From a virus, in the UHGV virus genome UHGV-1588268: 11,566 nucleotides of DNA; one strand, 5' to 3'. How positions within the stretch are numbered: position 1 is the stretch's first letter; every line of letters starts with the position of its first letter. The position numbers and the translations under genes are program-made. The notes below the pieces were generated by a model. That model did no database searches, had not been told where the DNA came from, and was given only the letters and a program-made list of their open reading frames with translations. Shown here in pieces: positions 208 through 11,160 of this stretch.

Positions 208-1458
208 GTGCTTACCGATACAAAATTAAAAAATCTCAAGCCGCAGGACAAACTGTACAAGGTCTCCGATCGTGACGGGCTGTATGTAGCTGTGCTTACG
301 TCAGGCACGGTCTCGTTTCGCTATGACTACCGTATCAACGGTCGCCGCGAAACACTGGTAATCGGGCAGTATGGGCGTGACGGTATCAGCCTGGCAGAAG
401 CGCGAGAAGAACTGATTGCTGCAAAGAAGCTGCTTAAAGCAGGCCAGTCACCGGCTGCGGCTAAACGTGACGGTATCAAAAAGATTCGTGGTGCCGAGAC
501 GTTTGCGGTACATACCGACAGTTATATGAAACACGTCATCCTGGCTGACAGTACCCGCGCAATGAAACAGGCGGTGATCGACCGTGACATACTTCCGGTT
601 CTTGGCAATAAAATGATGGCTGAAATTACCACATCAATGGTTCGTGATTTGTGTGACCGGATTGTCGAACGCGGTGGCCGGGCAACAGCAGTGCAGGCCA
701 GGGAGATCATCAGTAGCGTATACCGTCACGCCAATGACCGTGGTCATGGTTTGTTTAATCCTGCGGCTGACATTAAACCTTCGTCTATCGCCATATTTAA
801 ACCACGAGAGCGAACACTGACACCAGAAGAAATTGGCCTGTTCTTCCGCACGCTGGATGCCATTGGTGCTATGGGCACTATGAAAATGGCTTTAAAACTG
901 GTGCTTATCACTATGGTTCGTAAGGGCGAATTCACCAATGCAACGTGGGATGAAATAGATTTTAAAAAATGGACATGGACAATTCCTCCAGACCGCATGA
1001 AGGGAAGCCGGGCGCACGTTATTTACCTGCCCAAACAGGCACAGGATATATTGGTCGGGTTGCAGATGTGCGCTGGTGGAAGTGAATATCTGGTTCCTGG
1101 TCGTTACAATTTCCGGAAGCCATTATCTAATGCCGCGCTGAACTCTCTGATCGACAGAACGGTGAAAATAATAAATGAAGATGGTGAGCATATTCAGGAC
1201 TTCACTGTACATGATATGCGCCGTACAGCCAGTACGTTGTTGCATGAGGCTGGTTATCCTTCAGACTGGATTGAAAAGGCTCTGGCACATGAGCAGAAAG
1301 GTGTGCGCGCCGTATATAACAAAGCGGAATACGCCAGACAGCGCGCCTACATGTTGCAGCAGTGGGCCGATATGATTGATTCATGGATTGACGGGGAGCA
1401 TACGGATCTGATTCCGTTCTCCCCGTCGAAGTTTGAGAAGTGGATGGCGGGGGAATAA
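208..1458 (+). CDS. int: Tyrosine site-specific integrase, P4/CP4-57-like family
   Basis: 416-aa ORF with GTG start. N-terminus (LTDTKLKNLKPQDKLYKVSDRDGLYVAV...) matches the arm-binding domain typical of P4-family integrases; C-terminus carries H-x-x-R and a candidate catalytic Tyr (HDMRRTAS...VRAVYNKAEY). Family assignment from memory, not a search. Confidence 0.9.
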   Translation: MLTDTKLKNLKPQDKLYKVSDRDGLYVAVLTSGTVSFRYDYRINGRRETLVIGQYGRDGISLAEAREELIAAKKLLKAGQSPAAAKRDGIKKIRGAETFAVHTDSYMKHVILADSTRAMKQAVIDRDILPVLGNKMMAEITTSMVRDLCDRIVERGGRATAVQAREIISSVYRHANDRGHGLFNPAADIKPSSIAIFKPRERTLTPEEIGLFFRTLDAIGAMGTMKMALKLVLITMVRKGEFTNATWDEIDFKKWTWTIPPDRMKGSRAHVIYLPKQAQDILVGLQMCAGGSEYLVPGRYNFRKPLSNAALNSLIDRTVKIINEDGEHIQDFTVHDMRRTASTLLHEAGYPSDWIEKALAHEQKGVRAVYNKAEYARQRAYMLQQWADMIDSWIDGEHTDLIPFSPSKFEKWMAGE

Positions 1459-1461
1459 CGT

Positions 1462-1656
1462 TTAATAGTTCTGCTGATTTTCTTCCATCTCTGCTTCTGC
1501 TGCCAGTGATTCAATTTTGTTTTCGAATATTGCTGACAGTGTTGCAAATTCAGCATCAGTGACAGCGGGAATTGGAACAAACCTGATCCCGCTGTGTGCA
1601 AGCATGTTTGCAGTTTCAAGGCATTTTCTTAAATCTGCTGGTGATGCCCTGTTCAT
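1462..1656 (-). CDS. Hypothetical small acidic protein (64 aa)
   Basis: Start ATG overlaps the methyltransferase stop as ATGA (translational coupling); convergent with int. Sequence MNRASPADLRKCLETANMLAHSGIRFVPIPAVTDAEF...EAEMEENQQNY. No family recognised. Confidence 0.4.
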   Translation of the reverse strand: MNRASPADLRKCLETANMLAHSGIRFVPIPAVTDAEFATLSAIFENKIESLAAEAEMEENQQNY

Positions 1657-2303
1657 GCAGCACGCTCCCGCCCCTGGTTGTCTGTTGGTGACAGCGGAGC
1701 ATTGCTGAATGCATTTGTTAATCCGCCAATATCCAACGCGTATCCAGGGTGTAGTTGCACTGCCGGGTCTTCGCACTGATTACCCCAAACATCGAAGCCA
1801 TGAGACGTCTGGCGGGCGAACAGTTCAATGCGAGAAACATCGCCTAATAATTGCACAAGTTTTTCACGAACGATATCTGGCTTTCTTGAATGCTCAAGCC
1901 GCGGTGCGGTAAATGACTGAACGATCCCTGCATTAATGCGCGTAGGTAGTTTTCCCTTTACCGCAAACAGGCAATCTTCACTATTGGCGCGAGTCATGTG
2001 TCCCATACCCATAACCAGTTTATCTGGTTGTCGACTACCACATTTTATCCACGTGAAGCCCTTCATCGTCATCAGACGGAATCCCCAGGCTTCAACAACT
2101 TTTAGTGCTTCGAGTGGTTGTGTTGGCACCCACCACATGGCCAACAGACAGTTTTCATCGGCCAAATCCCACACAGGAAGGCGGCAGATATCCAGCACAC
2201 TCATAACCGGATATTTAAAACCGGCACCGCGATTACCATCTGCGGCTTTGTCCCGGTATACCCAGGGTGGATCTGCATAGATTAGTGTGTATTTCTTAGT
2301 CAT
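1653..2303 (-). CDS. MT-A70 family N6-adenine DNA methyltransferase (phage orphan methylase)
   Basis: 216-aa ORF. N-terminus MTKKYTLIYADPPWVY carries the DPPW catalytic motif of MT-A70-type adenine methyltransferases; WGF and FDVWGN motifs further downstream. Confidence 0.85.
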   Translation of the reverse strand: MTKKYTLIYADPPWVYRDKAADGNRGAGFKYPVMSVLDICRLPVWDLADENCLLAMWWVPTQPLEALKVVEAWGFRLMTMKGFTWIKCGSRQPDKLVMGMGHMTRANSEDCLFAVKGKLPTRINAGIVQSFTAPRLEHSRKPDIVREKLVQLLGDVSRIELFARQTSHGFDVWGNQCEDPAVQLHPGYALDIGGLTNAFSNAPLSPTDNQGRERAA

Positions 2304-2595
2304 AAACCACCCCGCAACATCCTATACCGCTATAGTCTCCACGGCGAAGGCCGTTACCTTTTGTGATACATTGGTCCCTGCGAACCGCGATCCTTGCACG
2401 CTCAACATCACCAGAAGCAACATCCATACACTGAAGCCAAAGGTGAGCGGCAATGCGGAACTGCCCTTTTTTCTCTCTTTCAATCGCGCGTTTTTCGATC
2501 TCTATCGCCGCAGGAGTAACGGCGACAATCTTTGACGGACTGCGCATTGAAACCTTATTCATGTGATATTTTTCAAGTCGGCTTAACTTTCTCAC
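2296..2595 (-). CDS. Hypothetical protein (99 aa; start uncertain)
   Basis: ORF overlaps the methyltransferase start by 8 nt. The GTG at 2595 overlaps the upstream stop as GTGA and has a GAGGG ribosome-binding site; internal ATGs are alternative starts. No family recognised. Confidence 0.45.
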   Translation of the reverse strand: MRKLSRLEKYHMNKVSMRSPSKIVAVTPAAIEIEKRAIEREKKGQFRIAAHLWLQCMDVASGDVERARIAVRRDQCITKGNGLRRGDYSGIGCCGVVYD

Positions 2596-2708
2596 TTAAT
2601 CCAACCCTCTCTGAAAATTAATGCCAGCAGATAAAGCCATGCTGAAACAGAGGCCAGGAATAAGTACCATCCTGACCATTTGATCCAGTGCCTTAGCAGC
2701 GCACTCAT
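2592..2708 (-). CDS. Putative small hydrophobic peptide (38 aa), candidate membrane protein
   Basis: Own translation: MSALLRHWIKWSGWYLFLASVSAWLYLLALIFREGWIK. ATG overlaps the alpA stop as ATGA. One predicted transmembrane helix. Below the cutoff of the supplied ORF track. Confidence 0.3.
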   Translation of the reverse strand: MSALLRHWIKWSGWYLFLASVSAWLYLLALIFREGWIK

Positions 2709-2953
2709 GCAGCGTTGCTCACGGGACGATATACACGTTGCTGAACAGGAGGTTTTTTACCCTGGAACTCTGCCGGGCTTGCTGCCTGACGTTCATCAAG
2801 CCAACGCTCAACTTCGTCACGGTTCCATGCGCAGCGTTTGTCAGTGATATACCAGCGTTTAGGAAATTCCCCTGCGCGCTCCATACGGTCGATAGTGCTC
2901 CATGACAGTGGCACCACCGCCAGGAGTTCCTTCTTACCTAATGCACCTTTCAT
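2705..2953 (-). CDS. alpA: AlpA/Xis-family DNA-binding protein (excisionase / prophage regulator)
   Basis: 82 aa; LSWSTIDRMERAGEFPKRWYITDKRCAWNRDEVERWL fits the AlpA/excisionase winged-helix pattern; AGAGAGG ribosome-binding site before the ATG. Confidence 0.8.
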   Translation of the reverse strand: MKGALGKKELLAVVPLSWSTIDRMERAGEFPKRWYITDKRCAWNRDEVERWLDERQAASPAEFQGKKPPVQQRVYRPVSNAA

Positions 2954-3002: not shown

Positions 3003-4025
3003 TTACTCGAATTCTGGACGTATATCGTTAAGCGTCATCATGAATTTTTGGTGATATTCATCACCGAGCTTTTCAGCCATGGTGTTAATCTCATTTTCAG
3101 CGCGCTTGAACATCGTTTTTGCATCTTCAGCAGATGGATCCAGGCTATTAAGTATCGCGATGATATATTCTCGAGCTTCTTCTCGTTCTGAATCTGAAAT
3201 TGGCGACAGGTGTTGACGCTCATCGTCAACTACGGAATATTCACCAGTGATAACAGCTGCGTTATCTTGGCTAAGTCCAGCTTCAGCGCGCTCATCCATA
3301 ACAACAGCCTTCTGCATTTCAATAGAAACAGGAAGATATTTGAATAGTCGGCGAATTACTGTTTTTTTAGCCATCTCATCGAAGTGATCAACCCATGGGC
3401 CACTGCTACCGGCTTTGCTCAGTGCACGAACTTTCTCAATGTCTGCCCGGCTCATAACTTCAAATTGGACTCCGCCATCTTTCAGTCGTGCAACGGCGTA
3501 AACGTGCGTTAATTCTCCGCGGTCACCTGTTTCGCAAGGTAAATGCTCGAGCGTTTCTTCCAGGCCGTATGAGTAGCTGAATTTGTCGTTTGTATGTACG
3601 GTACGAGCCGAGATACTCAGGATCTGCCCAGAGCGGCGGGCAAGGTCAATCATTCCGCGATAGCCGATAATCAGCTGTGCTTCTGTAGATACGGTTTCCC
3701 ATCTTCCATTTACTTTCTGGCGTTTGTCGAACGGTATCAGGTAAGCGTGTCCAAGAGCTCCGCCTGGTTCAAGACCCAATTGGGCACATTGCATAATTGC
3801 CCCCAGGAAGCTGGCTTGGTCGCATGATGCAAGTTTTGGAACCTTTCGGATCTCTGTGGTTGCTATGCGCGCCAGACGGTCTGCTGTCATGTGCTTTGGA
3901 AGTGCCAAAGCCATCTGAGCTTTAATTTTTGGGTCTGCCAGAAGTCCGGCCAGAGTTGTTGGTTTCTCATTATGATGTGCAACTTGGTTACCGGTAGCCG
4001 CTGCCTTAAGTGCATTGATAGACAT
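3003..4025 (-). CDS. recT: RecT-family single-strand annealing recombinase
   Basis: 340 aa. Long blocks match Rac RecT as I remember it (RIATTEIRKVP, QCAQLGLEPGGALGHAYLIPF, LIIGYRGMIDLARRSGQI, THVYAVARLKDGGVQFEVMSR, GPWVDHFDEMAKKTVIRRLFKYLPVSIEMQKAV). AAGGAG ribosome-binding site. Confidence 0.92.
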   Translation of the reverse strand: MSINALKAAATGNQVAHHNEKPTTLAGLLADPKIKAQMALALPKHMTADRLARIATTEIRKVPKLASCDQASFLGAIMQCAQLGLEPGGALGHAYLIPFDKRQKVNGRWETVSTEAQLIIGYRGMIDLARRSGQILSISARTVHTNDKFSYSYGLEETLEHLPCETGDRGELTHVYAVARLKDGGVQFEVMSRADIEKVRALSKAGSSGPWVDHFDEMAKKTVIRRLFKYLPVSIEMQKAVVMDERAEAGLSQDNAAVITGEYSVVDDERQHLSPISDSEREEAREYIIAILNSLDPSAEDAKTMFKRAENEINTMAEKLGDEYHQKFMMTLNDIRPEFE

Positions 4026-4034
4026 TTTTTCTCC

Positions 4035-4934
4035 TTACTTCATTCTGAAGACGCGTTGTGTCGTTGTTGTTTTGAATTTTTCGAATAACTCAGGGTGTAC
4101 TGACTGGAATAGCTTCTGGTCGAATCTGTTGCTGATCTGAGATTTCCATGTGCAGAGCGGCTTTCCGTCCAGGGTCAGGACTGAGTGCTCTTGCATGTAC
4201 ATCTTCAGCTTCTCTTCTGATATAGCTATTTCTTCTTCCAGTGATTTTCTGCGTGACTTCATGTCTCGTAGATCGTTGAATAGTGCGAGTGCCTTTCCGT
4301 CAGCCTCGATACTTGTCCCGGCATCTTTCTCAAACATCAGCGATACATCGCTTACGCTGGTAGCTTCCGGCGGGTTAAGATTTTTCACTCGGTCCCAGAA
4401 AGCGATTTCTTTTTCTAAGATCGCCTGGATAGTTTCTTCATCACGCTCAACCCGATAGATTCGGAAGTCGTCGCCACCGATAAGCACACCGAAAACGCAT
4501 ACCTGTTTGTTTGTAACCATCAACCCGTGCATGGCCTGGGCCGTGTAATGCACAGGAATTGCATCTGTCTGGATTTCTCCCCATTCTTTGGCTTTGAACG
4601 GACTAACTGTTTTGATCTCAATGTTCTCGCCTGACGCTGCTTCTGCATCGATCTCAGCTGCAATAAAATCGTAATCACGGTGGATATAGCGGTTTCCGCG
4701 ATGAACGATTTCCATCCCTGTTTCCTCAGAAAGCAGGTCTATTACGTATGGCTCCATACGCTGGCCACGCGTGAAAACTTTCTGCTTGCTTGGGTCTACT
4801 GGTTTGACACGTGGCTGGACCTTATCCAGATAAACCTCAAGCGGGGTGCGCCATGGGCTAATTCCAAGAATCCCTGCAACATCGCTTCCTCCGATGTATT
4901 TTGTTCTATCCATGATTCCAGCGTTCTGCATCAT
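4035..4934 (-). CDS. YqaJ/lambda-Exo-like recombination exonuclease (PD-(D/E)xK)
   Basis: 299 aa. N-terminal DRTKYIGGSDVAGILGISPWRTPLEVY is typical of YqaJ-type phage exonucleases; sits immediately upstream of recT, the usual exo-recT pairing. Start overlaps the upstream stop (ATGA). Confidence 0.85.
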   Translation of the reverse strand: MMQNAGIMDRTKYIGGSDVAGILGISPWRTPLEVYLDKVQPRVKPVDPSKQKVFTRGQRMEPYVIDLLSEETGMEIVHRGNRYIHRDYDFIAAEIDAEAASGENIEIKTVSPFKAKEWGEIQTDAIPVHYTAQAMHGLMVTNKQVCVFGVLIGGDDFRIYRVERDEETIQAILEKEIAFWDRVKNLNPPEATSVSDVSLMFEKDAGTSIEADGKALALFNDLRDMKSRRKSLEEEIAISEEKLKMYMQEHSVLTLDGKPLCTWKSQISNRFDQKLFQSVHPELFEKFKTTTTQRVFRMK

Positions 4935-5538: not shown

Positions 5539-6123
5539 TTATTGTTTGCTTTTTTCGTTCTGGTTGATGACAAATTCAATGTAACTTTCGATCTTTGCTT
5601 TCTCGGTTTCGGGTAACAATGCGTAGCGTGAGCGGTCATAGTTGATAGTCGCAGGGTCGTGCGGGTGAATCAGTAGTTCATATCCGTGACGCCCGAATGC
5701 GGATGCAACATTCTCCAGGGTGGAAATGGAAACGCTGACCTCATTGTTTAACAGGCGGCTGATTGTCACCTGGGCGACGCCGGATGCGCGGTGAAGTTTT
5801 CCCTGTGTTGAAAGGTCGCGGCTTTCGCTCATCCAGCGTTCCAGATTGTGAGCCGCCAGCTGACCTATATCGCTCGGGCCGACAGGCTGAAAACCCTCCT
5901 GAGAAAGCGAACGATCAATATCAAGCCAGTTACGGGGTTTATTGGCGGCAGCTTCAATTTTTCGTGCAACCTGGTCGCCGATAACCTTCTTGCCAAGAGC
6001 CCAGCGGTTTACCAGATTTGCCTGAGTTCCAAGTTTTTCTGCCATCCGCGTCTGAACACCATTGAATTCACGGTCGATCAAGTCGTTGAGATTTTGCCTG
6101 CGGACGTCCTGGATACTTTTCAT
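5539..6123 (-). CDS. Phage repressor candidate: tandem HTH (XRE/Cro-C1 type) DNA-binding protein, no S24 peptidase domain recognised
   Basis: 194 aa. Two HTH-like segments (QTRMAEKLGTQANLVNRWALGKK and KLHRASGVAQVTISRLLNNEVSVSISTLENVA). Divergent from a Cro-like gene with operator palindromes between them. C-terminal 45 aa show no Ala-Gly/Ser-Lys autocleavage signature. Confidence 0.75.
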   Translation of the reverse strand: MKSIQDVRRQNLNDLIDREFNGVQTRMAEKLGTQANLVNRWALGKKVIGDQVARKIEAAANKPRNWLDIDRSLSQEGFQPVGPSDIGQLAAHNLERWMSESRDLSTQGKLHRASGVAQVTISRLLNNEVSVSISTLENVASAFGRHGYELLIHPHDPATINYDRSRYALLPETEKAKIESYIEFVINQNEKSKQ

Positions 6124-6277: not shown

Positions 6278-6508
6278 ATGAGCGATAACGGACATTTCGA
6301 TTTCAAAAAGCACTGGCTTGCACTTACTCCGGATGAGCGTGAAGCCTTCGCACAGGAAGCCGGAACGACGAGTCACTATATCCAGACTCACTTAACAGGC
6401 AAGCGCAAAATGCCAGGTAAGGTATTGATGAATGGGCTTTTTAAAGCCTGTAAAACAAGACAATGGCTGCGCTCAAAAGCAGAACTGGCATACTTCTTCT
6501 ACTCATGA
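6278..6508 (+). CDS. Cro/YdaS-like small HTH regulator
   Basis: 76 aa, divergent from the repressor; EAFAQEAGTTSHYIQTHLTGKRKMP resembles the HTH and Gly-Lys-Arg turn of Cro/YdaS-family proteins. Confidence 0.65.
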   Translation: MSDNGHFDFKKHWLALTPDEREAFAQEAGTTSHYIQTHLTGKRKMPGKVLMNGLFKACKTRQWLRSKAELAYFFYS

Positions 6509-6656: not shown

Positions 6657-6869
6657 TTGAAGATAGTAACCAGAATGGAGGCCGCAAAAGCCGGGTTAAA
6701 TCGCTATTTCACAGGAAAGCGGTGCCGTCACGGCCATCTCTCTGAAAGGTATGTTCTGAACGGAACATGTGTTGAATGTGCAATGAATAGCGCCAACCGC
6801 CATCGTAATGAATTTGCTTGTGCACTAAAGAGTGCAAGAGGGGAAACCTATGGCAAGCAGCTGGATTAA
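6657..6869 (+). CDS. Small Zn-ribbon-like protein (70 aa) in the cII position
   Basis: ORF with TTG start and AAGGGG ribosome-binding site (alternative ATG at 6675). Cys/His pattern C-x-H-x-H...C-x-x-C (GKRCRHGHLSERYVLNGTCVEC). Overlaps the start of the O-like gene. No family recognised. Confidence 0.5.
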   Translation: MKIVTRMEAAKAGLNRYFTGKRCRHGHLSERYVLNGTCVECAMNSANRHRNEFACALKSARGETYGKQLD

Positions 6870-7674
6870 GGTTGAAGTTATCACTCCTGATAAACCTGAA
6901 ATTTTTCAGATAGCAGAAATTCTGGGTATTGATCCAGATGCTGTTCTTGGAAAGCTGGTTCGTATATGGGCATGGGCTGACCAGCAAACAATAGACGGTA
7001 ACGCTGGCAGCGTTACAAAAGGAGTACTTGATAGACTCGCTTTTATTACAGGATTTGCTGACGCCCTCATTAGCGTCGGATGGCTTGCTTATCATGACGG
7101 CAAACTAATTCTTCCAAACTTTGAGCGACATAATGGAGAATCATCGAAAAAACGTGCACTTACGAATAGAAGAGTGGCAGAGCATCGAAAACGAGTAACG
7201 CAAAAAGTAACGCCAACAGCGTTACAAAAGGAGTTACCAGAGGAAGAGGAAGATATATATAAAACCCCACACATAGCGCACGTGCGCGAGGGTGCTCCGA
7301 CCAGTGAAGCGAACAGTACGCCGTTGCAGGTGGCAGAACCTGAATTTCTGGATGGCCTGAGTGAACCCATCGGGAAATTTCCGATGACAGATGGCTGGCT
7401 ACCGTCGCCAGATTTTCGGTGGCGTGCTGCGCTGTGGGGAACGGCCCTGCCGGAACCGGAATTTACACCTGCTGAACTTGCTGCATTCCGGGATTACTGG
7501 ATGGCTGAGGGCAAAGTGTTCACGCAGGTTCAGTGGGAACAAAAATTCGCCAGGCACGTAAATCATATCAGGGGAAAATCAAAAAATGCCGGGAAAAGCG
7601 ATGAGCTTGACTGGAATAACACTGACTGGATAGAAGGGGTGTGGGATGAAATCAACTCCAGAACTTCTCAATGA
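6850..7674 (+). CDS. Replication initiator, O-like: N-terminal phage replisome-organizer domain plus C-terminal DnaT-like domain
   Basis: N-terminus MASSWIKVEV...IWAWADQ fits the phage replisome-organizer N-domain. C-terminus (GKFPMTDGWLPSPDFRWRAALWGTALPEPEFTPAELAAFRDYWMAEGKVFTQVQWEQKFARHV) aligns closely with E. coli DnaT as I remember it. AGAGGGGA ribosome-binding site. Confidence 0.8.
   Translation: MASSWIKVEVITPDKPEIFQIAEILGIDPDAVLGKLVRIWAWADQQTIDGNAGSVTKGVLDRLAFITGFADALISVGWLAYHDGKLILPNFERHNGESSKKRALTNRRVAEHRKRVTQKVTPTALQKELPEEEEDIYKTPHIAHVREGAPTSEANSTPLQVAEPEFLDGLSEPIGKFPMTDGWLPSPDFRWRAALWGTALPEPEFTPAELAAFRDYWMAEGKVFTQVQWEQKFARHVNHIRGKSKNAGKSDELDWNNTDWIEGVWDEINSRTSQ
6998..7234. repeat. 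Iteron-like repeats inside the O-like gene (candidate origin): GTAACGC-N5-GCGTTAC-AAAAGGAGT twice
   Basis: Copy 1 at 6998-7025, copy 2 at 7207-7234, plus an extra GTAACGC at 7195-7201 and CATCGAAAA(A)ACG direct repeats at 7143-7196. The two copies fall in different reading frames of the O-like gene. An A/T-rich tract follows at 7243-7262. Confidence 0.4.
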
Positions 7675-8422
7675 GTACGATCGCTTACGTGAGCATGGTG
7701 TTGCTGTGCATGAAGAGCGGCGTGACAGCAATGGCAAAAAGGAGCAGGTTGCTAGAATTTTCAATGAACTATTTGTCCAGTTACAGGCTGCATTTCCTGC
7801 AAGCGTTTCGACCATAAGGGAGCAGAACAAACTTAATGAATTCCGTAAGCAATGGATGCTTGCGTTTCTGGAGAATGGGATCACTACAATGGAACAGGTT
7901 AACGCTGGTATGCGCCACGCCCGCGCCAGTGAATCTCCGTTCTGGCCGTCGCCAGGGCAATTCATCAAGTGGTGCAAAGACAGCAAGATGGTTCTTGGCG
8001 TCACCATTGACGATGTGATGGCGGAGTTTCACCGGTACAGCAAGGAAAAAAGTTTATATCCTGGTGGTCCCGAAAGATTCCCGTGGCGGCATCCGGTTAT
8101 GTACTGGGTCGTATGTGATACCCGTCGTGCAATGTATCAGCGCCAGCTTAGCGAGAGTGAGGTTGAGAAACACGCGCGCAGGCTGCTCGATGATTGGGCG
8201 AAAAAGGTGGCTTCCGGACAGCAGATACCCGATCCGGTGATCAGCATACAGGCAAAGCCAGAGCCCATGAGTACACCTCCGGACACAGGGAGAGACGTTT
8301 ACCATCCACCAGGGCGAAGTTTCGGGTGCATGCCTAACGCCGCCACCCTTTGGGGAATAACACCGGCGCAGTGGCTGATGGAGGAATACAGGCGGGGAAA
8401 GGCGGCAGGATTTATCAAGTAA
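7646..8422 (+). CDS. Replication protein P-like (DnaB helicase loader)
   Basis: 258 aa. QLQAAFPASVSTIREQNKLNEFRKQWMLAFLENGITTMEQVNAGMRHAR...FWPSPGQFIKWC matches lambda P (ATFPASL...WVLAFRENGITTMEQVNAGMRVAR...FLPSPGQFVAWC) as I remember it. Overlaps the O-like gene end; AAGGGG ribosome-binding site. Confidence 0.88.
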   Translation: MKSTPELLNEYDRLREHGVAVHEERRDSNGKKEQVARIFNELFVQLQAAFPASVSTIREQNKLNEFRKQWMLAFLENGITTMEQVNAGMRHARASESPFWPSPGQFIKWCKDSKMVLGVTIDDVMAEFHRYSKEKSLYPGGPERFPWRHPVMYWVVCDTRRAMYQRQLSESEVEKHARRLLDDWAKKVASGQQIPDPVISIQAKPEPMSTPPDTGRDVYHPPGRSFGCMPNAATLWGITPAQWLMEEYRRGKAAGFIK

Positions 8423-8539: not shown

Positions 8540-8884
8540 ATGAGAAAACAGATACAGGCTCTTGGTCGACTCAAAACAGGCCAGATGAACAAAACTGAAT
8601 CTGCGTATTGCCAGCACCTTGAGCTGCGTAAACGTGCAGGGGAAATCGCCTGGTATCGATTCGAGGGTATCAAGCTGCGGTTAGCTGACAACACGTTCTA
8701 TACGCCAGATTTCGCTGTGATGCTCGCCACCGGAGAGATGGAACTGCACGAAGTGAAAGGTTTCTGGACCGACGACGCCAGGGTGAAAACCAAAGTCGCC
8801 GCAGATCAGTATCCGTTCCGAATCATCGGGGTAACGGTTAAACCAAAGAAAGCAGGTGGTGGCTGGAACATCGAAGAGTTCTGA
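8540..8884 (+). CDS. DUF1064-like phage protein with PD-(D/E)xK nuclease signature
   Basis: 114 aa. YTPDFAV...ELHEVKG gives a D...E-x-K arrangement; size and context (after the replication genes) match DUF1064-type proteins. Family from memory. Confidence 0.7.
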   Translation: MRKQIQALGRLKTGQMNKTESAYCQHLELRKRAGEIAWYRFEGIKLRLADNTFYTPDFAVMLATGEMELHEVKGFWTDDARVKTKVAADQYPFRIIGVTVKPKKAGGGWNIEEF

Positions 8885-8945: not shown

Positions 8946-9593
8946 ATGGAAAGTAATATCAAAGGGTTAGTTGCCGCCGGGCATGAGATGGCTTCGGAAC
9001 TGAAAGCAGAATGTGGTGCCGTTGATATGCGCAGTGTGGCAAAGCTGATCAGCGATTTGGCAACGCAACTGGAAGTGCAACTGGTGCGTGCTAATGCGCT
9101 GGCCGAAGACCAGCAGAAAGCGATTGAGTCAATTAAGCAGGCTGATGCGGCTGTTAAGTTGGCACACGAGAAGTTTTCGGCGTTGGCGGCGGAGAATGCG
9201 CTGGCTCGTAAGGCAGTTCAGGCATTCTGCGATGTTGTTGGCGACAACACCGAGGTTATCGCTGAGGAGGTTGGGCGAGATGGCGTTCTGGTTATTTTGG
9301 AGGCCATGAAGGCAACAGGAAATATGCCAGCCACCGATGCTTTTCTGGCTGTAGTGCGTGCGGAGGCACGCAACGAGGGGATTAACTATACCGCAAGCCG
9401 TCTTGCTGCTGCTTTCAACCACGGATTTATCAATAAGTCTTTACGTGAAGTTTTCGACGTTACGCGCATGATTCTGTCAGCGAAAGAAGAGTTGGCTAAT
9501 GAACCGCATCCGATTGATGGCCTGTCTGGTGAATATGCGGAAAAATCCCTAGAAGAATGGGCGGAACAGATTCGCAAAGGAGGCAACCAGTGA
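8946..9593 (+). CDS. Hypothetical alpha-helical/coiled-coil protein (215 aa)
   Basis: ORF with GAGGG ribosome-binding site. Stop overlaps the next start as GTGA. Ala/Glu/Leu-rich, predicted helical. No family recognised. Confidence 0.6.
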   Translation: MESNIKGLVAAGHEMASELKAECGAVDMRSVAKLISDLATQLEVQLVRANALAEDQQKAIESIKQADAAVKLAHEKFSALAAENALARKAVQAFCDVVGDNTEVIAEEVGRDGVLVILEAMKATGNMPATDAFLAVVRAEARNEGINYTASRLAAAFNHGFINKSLREVFDVTRMILSAKEELANEPHPIDGLSGEYAEKSLEEWAEQIRKGGNQ

Positions 9594-10288
9594 GCGAGAT
9601 TAACTATCAGGCTCTGCGACTGGCGGCAGAAAATGCAACACTAGGCGAATGGTGTACTGATGACTACCATGGAGTAATTGCCGATGCCGGACTGAACGCC
9701 AATTACTACATAGCATCATGCTCAGGACCGGATAATCGCGCCAATAAACGATTCATAGCCGCAGCCAATCCGGCTACCGTGCTGGCACTGCTGGATGAGA
9801 ACGAAAGCATGTGCCGCGACCTCATTGCTCGCAATGGTGAGATTGAAGGGCTTCGAAAACTGGTTGCTGAACTTGAGGAGACAAAATCAAAACTCAACGA
9901 GCAGCGTGAATATTACGAAGGTGTTATCTCGGATGGAAGTAAGCGTATTGCTGAACTGGAGAAAAGCGAAGAGCAACTCATCAGCGAGCGTGATCATGCT
10001 GAGTCTGCTTTAGCTGATATGTATTTTGCAGCAACCGGGGATAGGCCGGAGTGGAGCAACTTGTTCGGCTTTTCAGATGCTGTAGATGCCGTGGTTGACA
10101 GAATTGCTGATTTAGAAGCTAAACAGCCATCGCCAGTAGTACCGGAAGGACTGATTAAAGCGGTGCGTTTTTATGAGCAGGTAAAACGTGAGAACCCGCC
10201 AGTCGAAACCGGAGCATGGAAAGACGCTGTTGACTGGGTGCTCAAAGAGGCTTGCCCGGCTGTAAACATTGGCATCAAAGGAGAGTGA
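9590..10288 (+). CDS. Ead/Ea22-like family protein
   Basis: GTG start with AAGGAGG ribosome-binding site (the track's ATG at 9557 has none). N-terminus SEINYQALRLAAENATLGEW...CSGPDNRANKRFIAAANPATVLALLDENE matches my memory of Ea22-like prophage proteins; coiled-coil middle section. Confidence 0.6.
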   Translation: MSEINYQALRLAAENATLGEWCTDDYHGVIADAGLNANYYIASCSGPDNRANKRFIAAANPATVLALLDENESMCRDLIARNGEIEGLRKLVAELEETKSKLNEQREYYEGVISDGSKRIAELEKSEEQLISERDHAESALADMYFAATGDRPEWSNLFGFSDAVDAVVDRIADLEAKQPSPVVPEGLIKAVRFYEQVKRENPPVETGAWKDAVDWVLKEACPAVNIGIKGE

Positions 10289-10290
10289 GA

Positions 10291-10809
10291 GTGCAGATTT
10301 CACCGGTTACTCTTCGTGTTGCGAAGGCGTTTATATCCAGACATCACCGACACAATAAACCCCCGGTGGGGCATAAATTCAGCATTGGTCTGAGAAATGA
10401 TGCCGGAGAATTGATAGGTGTGGCGACAGCCGGTAGACCTGTTGCACGACATTTGGACGATGGATTAACGCTTGAAGTAAATCGCACATGTACCACAGGA
10501 GAACGCAACGCTAACAGCGCGCTTTATGGTGCTGTCTGGCGGGCAGCAAAGGCTATGGGTTATCAACGTTGTATTACGTACACCCAGGCAGATGAATCAG
10601 GAGCATCTCTTCGCGCAGCTGGTTTTGTTCGTGTGAAAGAGCTTCCTCCAAGAAAAAGCTGGGCGGAATCAAGCGTCGCCCTGCGGAGTAAACGCGATCC
10701 GGTCGGAAACGGTGGTGTTCCTCGTGTGCTCTGGGAAATCAGGAGAATGAGTACCACTGGCATTCGCATCAAAGGAGACGCAGGAGAACAAAACGATGAA
10801 AAACCGTAA
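10291..10809 (+). CDS. Conserved phage protein, GNAT-like acyltransferase fold suspected
   Basis: GTG start with AAAGGAGAG ribosome-binding site. Motifs RHHRHNKPPVGHKF, LIGVATAGRPVAR and the C-terminal SGASLRAAGF resemble GNAT acetyl-CoA-binding and motif-B regions. Function is inferred. Confidence 0.55.
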   Translation: MQISPVTLRVAKAFISRHHRHNKPPVGHKFSIGLRNDAGELIGVATAGRPVARHLDDGLTLEVNRTCTTGERNANSALYGAVWRAAKAMGYQRCITYTQADESGASLRAAGFVRVKELPPRKSWAESSVALRSKRDPVGNGGVPRVLWEIRRMSTTGIRIKGDAGEQNDEKP

Positions 10810-10972
10810 AGCAAAATTACTTCTTTTATCGCGTTCGACGGGGTACGAGAAGCTACCAATCAGCAATCACAAACGGGCGGTGATCGGCATGTTTGGTAGG
10901 GTGGTATTCGCATTTAACTATAAACCCACCGCGTCGCGGAACAGACGAGAGAAGGGGTACGCAGTGCGATGA
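10796..10972 (+). CDS. Putative small basic ORF (58 aa) beginning MKNRKAK
   Basis: Own translation: MKNRKAKLLLLSRSTGYEKLPISNHKRAVIGMFGRVVFAFNYKPTASRNRREKGYAVR. Start lies inside the 3' end of the preceding gene; stop overlaps the next ATG as ATGA. Below the track cutoff. Confidence 0.25.
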   Translation: MKNRKAKLLLLSRSTGYEKLPISNHKRAVIGMFGRVVFAFNYKPTASRNRREKGYAVR

Positions 10973-11160
10973 AAAACCGTAAGGCAAAGATGCTGATAGC
11001 AAAGCCGGGGCAGCGTATCCGTATCTCAAATCGGCTTGTTATTTACTATAGATATCTGGGTTTTAGGGGGTGTTCCTCTATTCGTTTTTACGGTGTCTGG
11101 CGAAACAGAAGCGCAGCACAAAACCGCTGGAAAAACCACTTTCGCACTAAAGGAGAGTGA
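10969..11160 (+). CDS. Putative small basic ORF (63 aa) beginning MKNRKAK
   Basis: Shares a 21-nt start region with the preceding small ORF (20 of 21 identical). Arg-rich. Stop lies within the ribosome-binding site of the next gene. Confidence 0.3.
   Translation: MKNRKAKMLIAKPGQRIRISNRLVIYYRYLGFRGCSSIRFYGVWRNRSAAQNRWKNHFRTKGE

Follow-up and report, generated by a model that had tools for sequence, protein, structure and literature searches.

The stretch of DNA analysed here (UHGV virus genome UHGV-1588268, 11,566 nucleotides, hereafter the window) covers the early part of a lambdoid prophage. Near its right-hand end lies a gene whose product the initial annotation described as a GNAT-like protein with an RHHRHNKPP motif, possibly a DNA-modifying enzyme of the type of phage Mu Mom or else some other acyltransferase. 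The question raised by this locus is whether the resemblance to Mom is genuine and, if so, how much of the Mom mechanism this short protein could share.

The open reading frame is without doubt a genuine gene. It is 519 nt long, begins with GTG (10291–10293), ends with TAA (10807–10809) and encodes 172 aa. The same GTG is the RefSeq start of a near-identical gene in E. coli SCU-308, and 37 homologues align with the protein from residue 1. A TTG at 10252 was considered as an alternative start and rejected, since it would overlap the upstream gene and has no support among the homologues. The gene is under purifying selection, with a median dN/dS of 0.095 over 42 distinct alleles from viral contigs. 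The reading frame and its motif, in which H19-R20-H21 is near-invariant among 133 family representatives, are thus as originally annotated. Homologues from E. coli match nucleotides 1–488 of the gene and then diverge, and the last ~10 residues of the protein are not conserved, which places a recombination (mosaic) junction within the 3' end of the gene.

Table 1. Genes of the window and features of the XF1762-family gene (aa, residues of the encoded protein)
Feature	Position	Strand	Evidence or remark
Integrase	208–1458	+	
MT-A70-type DNA methyltransferase	1653–2303	-	DPPW motif, aa 12–15
Transcriptional activator	2296–2595	-	phrog_868
Xis/AlpA-like	2705–2953	-	
RecT	3003–4025	-	
RecE-like exonuclease	4035–4934	-	
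Repressor	5539–6123	-	
Cro-like	6278–6508	+	
O-like replication initiator	6832–7674	+	
P-like helicase loader	7646–8422	+	
Holliday-junction resolvase	8540–8884	+	
Ea22-like ORF, first	8946–9593	+	
Ea22-like ORF, second	9557–10288	+	
RBS GGAGAG	10280–10285	+	read off sequence
TGA stop of upstream gene	10286–10288	+	directly after the RBS
XF1762-family gene, predicted short Mom-clade GNAT-fold protein	10291–10809	+	NCBIfam, PHROG, AlphaFold2, Foldseek
RHHRHNKPP motif, aa 17–25, end of predicted helix alpha1	10339–10365	+	sequence, AF2 model, alignment
E62-V-N-R65, predicted strand beta4; aligns with Mom E108-L-N-R111	10474–10485	+	hhalign, conservation
N73-A-N-S76, start of predicted helix alpha3; aligns with Mom N121-S-E-S124	10507–10518	+	hhalign, conservation
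E102-S-G-A-S106, after predicted strand beta5	10594–10608	+	hhalign, conservation
Predicted beta6-beta7 linker, ~aa 119–144, basic, conserved W124	10645–10722	+	AF2, linker lengths
Non-conserved C-terminal tail	10777–10809	+	E. coli homologue matches, alignment, pLDDT
Small paralogous ORF, 58 aa	10796–10972	+	phrog_1380
Small paralogous ORF, 63 aa	10969–11160	+	phrog_1380

The protein belongs to the XF1762 family of NCBIfam (NF045478), which it matches with 204.5 bits (E 5.9e-61; model positions 2–130 of 143) against a curated cutoff of 50 bits, and RefSeq gives the XF1762 name to the near-identical E. coli genes. It is a full-length, high-scoring member, distinguished from the rest of the family only by the unconserved 10-residue C-terminal tail. 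As the family is already catalogued by NCBIfam and labelled ‘Mom-like’ by PHROGs, the protein is a routine member of it, and a search of the literature on XF1762, phrog_1384 and PF25680 found no paper naming or testing the family. Its homologues number 5655 in 90% clusters and form 3300 clusters at 50% identity. They occur in phages Kapi1, TL-2011a, PhiR44_2, ZF40, phi1026b and Min1 and in Streptomyces phage Samy, in prophages of M. abscessus and in phages of Synechococcus, Pelagibacter, Pseudomonas and Vibrio; the hosts span Proteobacteria, Actinobacteria, Firmicutes and Cyanobacteria. The family is at least as large and as widespread as the Mom clade. A locus search with close alignment returned enterobacterial prophages only, at 80% identity or more, and the gene is present in 182 of 5426 complete E. 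coli genomes. Of the 198 matching loci in these genomes, 28 lie on plasmids, possibly phage-plasmids.

In sequence, the relationship to Mom is weak but specific. Mom (PF25680) is the sole Pfam match of the protein, at 22.2 bits (E 1.3e-4) and so below the gathering threshold of 27.1 bits, and the match spans residues 2–104 and model positions 3–118 of 202. Some relatives exceed the threshold, with 30–32 bits, and many carry a precomputed PF25680.2 match, so that the XF1762 family straddles the boundary of the Pfam model. Among 67 diverse members, 48 match Pfam Mom (E ≤ 0.01) and none matches another GNAT family. The prophage protein and Mu Mom also both fall into phrog_1384, at E 4e-42 and E 8e-84 respectively, and for Mu Mom this is the sole PHROG match. 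This PHROG is annotated as ‘Mom-like DNA modification protein’ and overlaps NF045478; the proposal of a Mom-type enzyme therefore coincides with a computational annotation that already existed. Profile–profile alignment (hhalign) of 133 XF1762 representatives with 121 Mu-clade Moms pairs 118 columns, residues 2–121 with Mom 41–173, at E 5e-4 and a probability of 30%, or 16% when narrow alignments are used. BLASTP of the protein against Mu Mom is not significant (E 0.25), an HMM made from Mu-clade Moms only scores at most 11 bits on XF1762 members and a search in the opposite direction is just as weak, single-sequence and profile-HMM searches of PDB sequences return nothing meaningful and do not find Mom, and Mu Mom itself matches no NCBIfam model. 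The link is detectable only via the broader model of Pfam, PHROGs, profile–profile alignment and structure. The two groups are also alike in charge, the median pI being 9.9 in the XF1762 family, where 91% of representatives lie above pI 9, and 10.0 in the Mom clade.

An AlphaFold2 model of the protein, made from a 38-sequence alignment, has a pLDDT of 84 and a pTM of 0.75. Its elements follow in the order beta1, alpha1, beta2–beta4, alpha3, beta5, alpha4, beta6, linker, beta7, in agreement with the GNAT core (beta1-alpha1(-alpha2)-beta2-beta3-beta4-alpha3-beta5-alpha4-beta6-beta7), and the predicted fold is certainly that of a GNAT. The beta6-beta7 linker is modelled with low confidence (pLDDT 64–72) as two short helical turns, and the chain is disordered past about residue 152, with pLDDT below 50 at aa 157–171. 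Foldseek against the PDB places Mu Mom first (8BV8_B, E 1.9e-8, TM 0.67) and lists over 300 GNATs after it. The GNAT-like call of the initial annotation was right. A search of BFVD returns the protein's own family first, then Mom together with the Mom–endonuclease fusions of jumbo phages, and generic GNATs last; one of the own-family matches, A0A6J5LU57, is an XF1762 copy inside an 877-aa ART-PolyVal-like protein. Judged from the model, Mom is the nearest known structure, but structure alone does not set Mom decisively apart from other GNATs.

How much of the Mom active site is retained can be asked of the individual residues. In the Mom reaction, glycine passes from Gly-tRNAGly to the N6 position of adenine in dsDNA and yields N6-carbamoylmethyl-dA; R111, S124 and R151 are essential, D149, H58, Y59, W48, Y159 and W181 are important, and deletion of an HTH-like insertion, residues ~175–209, abolishes momylation (PMC13219725). 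The equivalences that follow rest on the profile alignment, of 30% probability, together with counts of conserved residues within either family. On this weak alignment, two of the essential residues have counterparts, R65 for R111 (R65 in 132 of 133 representatives) and S76 for S124 (128 of 133). Also conserved in both families are H19 (Mom H58), E62 (Mom E108; 131 of 133), N73 (Mom N121) and E102 (Mom E150). By the same alignment and conservation in the 133 representatives, R151, D149 and Y159 find no counterparts: a four-residue deletion falls at R151, D101 opposite D149 is variable in the family (S, T or D), and a near-invariant L107 stands opposite Y159. Likewise, Y59 faces the near-invariant R20, and R9, opposite the dimer-interface residue W48, is not conserved. 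Around the predicted active-site cleft, ~20 positions are near-invariant in the 133 representatives, which share at most 50% identity.

Two further features bear on the relation between the families. The canonical Q/R-x-x-G-x-G/A loop of motif A, between beta4 and alpha3, was found by regular expression in 0 of 133 XF1762 representatives; the position of the CoA pyrophosphate loop is filled in both the XF1762 family and Mom by [RKP]-N-x-x-S, and N-x-x-S has the look of a derived feature common to both. In the beta6-beta7 linker the median length is 28 aa for the XF1762 family and 47 aa for the Mom clade. The shortening, by ~19 residues, means that most of the HTH-like insertion of Mom is missing from the prophage protein. 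Several basic residues are kept in the linker. W124, found in 114 of 133 representatives, pairs with Mom W181 only under a forced global alignment.

The loss of the insertion and of R151 means that the product or the sequence context of any reaction may differ from the N6-carbamoylmethyl-adenine of Mom, and that the protein does not belong among the orthologues of Mom. The Mom-type proposal is partly supported: the protein is best described as a relative of Mom within the Mom clade. The likeness to Mu Mom (PDB 8BV8; PF25680) lies in two phage-borne proteins of predicted or known GNAT fold, both of pI ~10. The differences are in length (172 aa versus 241 aa), in the N-terminal 40 residues of Mom, for which the prophage protein has no counterpart, and in expression. 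Mom is a tightly regulated late gene under translational control by Com, whereas the XF1762 gene belongs to an early operon and no Com-like ORF is present in the window, so that the two genes are regulated differently. Relative to Mom, the XF1762 family is a distinct variant: shorter, devoid of the insertion and regulated otherwise.

Gene fusions also bear on function. Among the best 150 cluster representatives surveyed, full-length XF1762 domains (181–218 bits) occur fused to a Dam-like N6-adenine methylase (P0268), a Dcm-like C5 methylase (P0308), PAPS-reductase-like domains (P0370, P0279), DUF6884 (P0353), the polyvalent-protein domains YodL and LPD28 (P0343), a recombinase fragment (P0344) and a beta-lactamase-fold domain (P0363). 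According to the polyvalent-protein hypothesis, proteins of this kind act in the recipient cell upon DNA entry. Mom-clade GNAT domains are also known from jumbo phages, as fusions to restriction endonucleases in proteins of 500–560 aa (Iyer et al., PMC7824862). These resemble the XF1762 family in being Mom-clade phage domains tied by fusion to DNA-conflict domains, but their partner is an endonuclease, whereas the prophage protein stands alone and its family is joined to methylases, PAPS-reductase-like domains and polyvalent proteins.

The neighbourhoods of other family members have a similar content. In phi1026b a DNA methylase gene begins within the end of the XF1762 gene and is itself followed by a ParB-like gene. 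In gut-phage contigs, Dam or N6_N4 methylases lie ~0.3–1 kb from the XF1762 gene, with PAPS_reduct, ParB_N, a C5 methylase or Lar nearby on the same contigs, and in ZF40, Samy and one M. abscessus prophage a methylase lies 1–4 kb away. In one lineage (P0437) methylase, PAPS_reduct, ParB_N and Lar are all absent within 4 kb; in most sampled lineages a methylase, PAPS_reduct, ParB_N or Lar is found within ~5 kb. These neighbourhoods fit a role in DNA modification or anti-restriction, a fit that is uncontrolled, because DNA methylases are common in the early regions of temperate phages. Genes of nucleotide metabolism also recur a few kb downstream (L002, 7587–8123; L088, 7002–7349; L099, 6204–6572; L103, 4935–5216), examples being dATP/dGTP pyrophosphohydrolase, dGTP_diPhyd_N and a DUF4406/nucleoside 2-deoxyribosyltransferase-like protein. 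The window's own methylase gene, that of MT-A70 type, lies ~8 kb from the XF1762 gene in a separate operon; it adjoins the integrase gene, and its 5' end overlaps the phrog_868 activator gene (2296–2595). The window contains no tRNA or tmRNA gene, the region upstream of the integrase gene (1–207) included.

The explanation that best accommodates these data is that the protein is an active Mom-clade GNAT transferase working on nucleic acid, most likely by modifying DNA bases and so evading restriction, a reading about which confidence and doubt are evenly balanced. The gene comes after those for replication, the resolvase and the Ea22-like proteins, a position that makes it an accessory gene of the early-right operon, and it would be expressed from there in the prophage. 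In E. coli SCU-308, ral, kil, recT and Ea22-like genes precede the copy, which belongs to a leftward cluster of early type and there too directly follows an Ea22-like gene. The protein would then most likely act as a ‘mini-Mom’ of the XF1762 family that attaches acyl or aminoacyl groups to bases of nucleic acid. If Mom is a guide, the group may come from an aminoacyl-tRNA and not from acyl-CoA, and an exocyclic amine in DNA may receive it. The purpose would likely be to shield the phage DNA from host restriction. What the data show is the fold, the specific tie to Mom, the conservation of active-site residues, the basicity, the purifying selection and the fusions to DNA-modification domains; catalysis, DNA as acceptor, the donor and a role against restriction are inferred from these.

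Two other readings, each of them improbable in our judgement, deserve to be weighed. The first places the target in RNA or translation: the protein might bind charged tRNA at its 3' end and either transfer or block the aminoacyl group, in the manner of FemX or TacT, or it might modify RNA bases in host takeover or anti-defence. The donor of Mom is itself a charged tRNA, the tRNA-facing R111 and S124 are the residues with counterparts in the prophage protein (PMC13219725), and what the protein misses is the DNA-facing insertion. Its basic charge would suit the binding of tRNA as well as of DNA, and an early-operon gene is compatible with such a role. Against this, the fusions and near neighbours (DNA methylases, ParB-like and PAPS-reductase-like proteins) point to DNA, and FemX, L/F-transferase and TacT are not prominent in the structure searches. 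Nor does the locus look like that of a GNAT toxin of the TacT/AtaT type, as an antitoxin-like partner is absent and the neighbours are an Ea22-like gene and the small phrog_1380 ORFs. PADLOC gave zero matches, which leaves the defence-system and toxin readings unsupported, and these were dropped.

The second reading, about as unlikely as the first, is that of a conventional acyl-CoA GNAT with a host or phage protein, or else a small molecule, as its acetylation substrate and with no part in DNA modification. Phages provide precedents in AcrVA5, which acetylates Cas12a, and in the Rac protein of phiKMV. GNATs bind CoA mostly via backbone contacts, so the missing Q/R-x-x-G-x-G/A loop is compatible with CoA binding. 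The same absence, in every one of the representatives, nevertheless counts against an acyl-CoA enzyme, as do the Pfam matches, which favour Mom to the exclusion of any acetyltransferase family, and the very basic character of the family. The canonical acetyl-CoA GNATs, such as RimI and the phosphinothricin acetyltransferases, have no profile match to the prophage protein and differ from it in this strong basicity and in possessing the loop. The fusion partners, too, are DNA methylases and domains of the DNA-modification type rather than protein-targeting modules.

That the protein might merely bind nucleic acid or protein through a GNAT fold, with no group transfer, is suggested by the loss of the Mom-important R151, Y159 and D149 and by the lack of a known activity for any family member, but this is very improbable given the near-invariant cleft and the strongly purifying selection, a pattern typical of enzymes.

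For decades Mom stood alone, and not until 2026 was it established that a charged tRNA is its donor and adenine in DNA its acceptor. A family that keeps the two catalytic residues of Mom and drops its DNA-binding insertion is an obvious place to seek further tRNA- or acyl-dependent modifications of nucleic acid and anti-restriction functions. It is conceivable, though rather doubtful, that the XF1762 family could install an undescribed modification of DNA (or RNA) bases, possibly aminoacyl-tRNA-dependent and unlike that of Mom in donor, product or context. If this were true, a second ‘momylation-like’ system would have gone unrecognised in ~3% of complete E. coli genomes. The ground on which to search includes prophages of E. 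coli and the cultured phages Kapi1, ZF40 and phi1026b. The value of the analysis lies in a sharpened, testable hypothesis rather than in a discovery.

The genes flanking the XF1762 gene have features of their own. The two Ea22-like ORFs upstream (8946–9593 and 9557–10288) encode coiled-coil proteins and overlap by 37 nt; they match positions 1–72 and 66–222 of phrog_250, and such consecutive matches suggest a modular or split Ea22-like gene. In SCU-308, the gene upstream of the XF1762 gene bears the RefSeq name ‘ead/Ea22-like’. Downstream come the two ORFs that match phrog_1380, a family without an assigned function; the first shares 14 nt with the 3' end of the XF1762 gene and 4 nt (ATGA) with the second. 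The proteins of both (10796–10972 and 10969–11160) begin with MKNRKAK.
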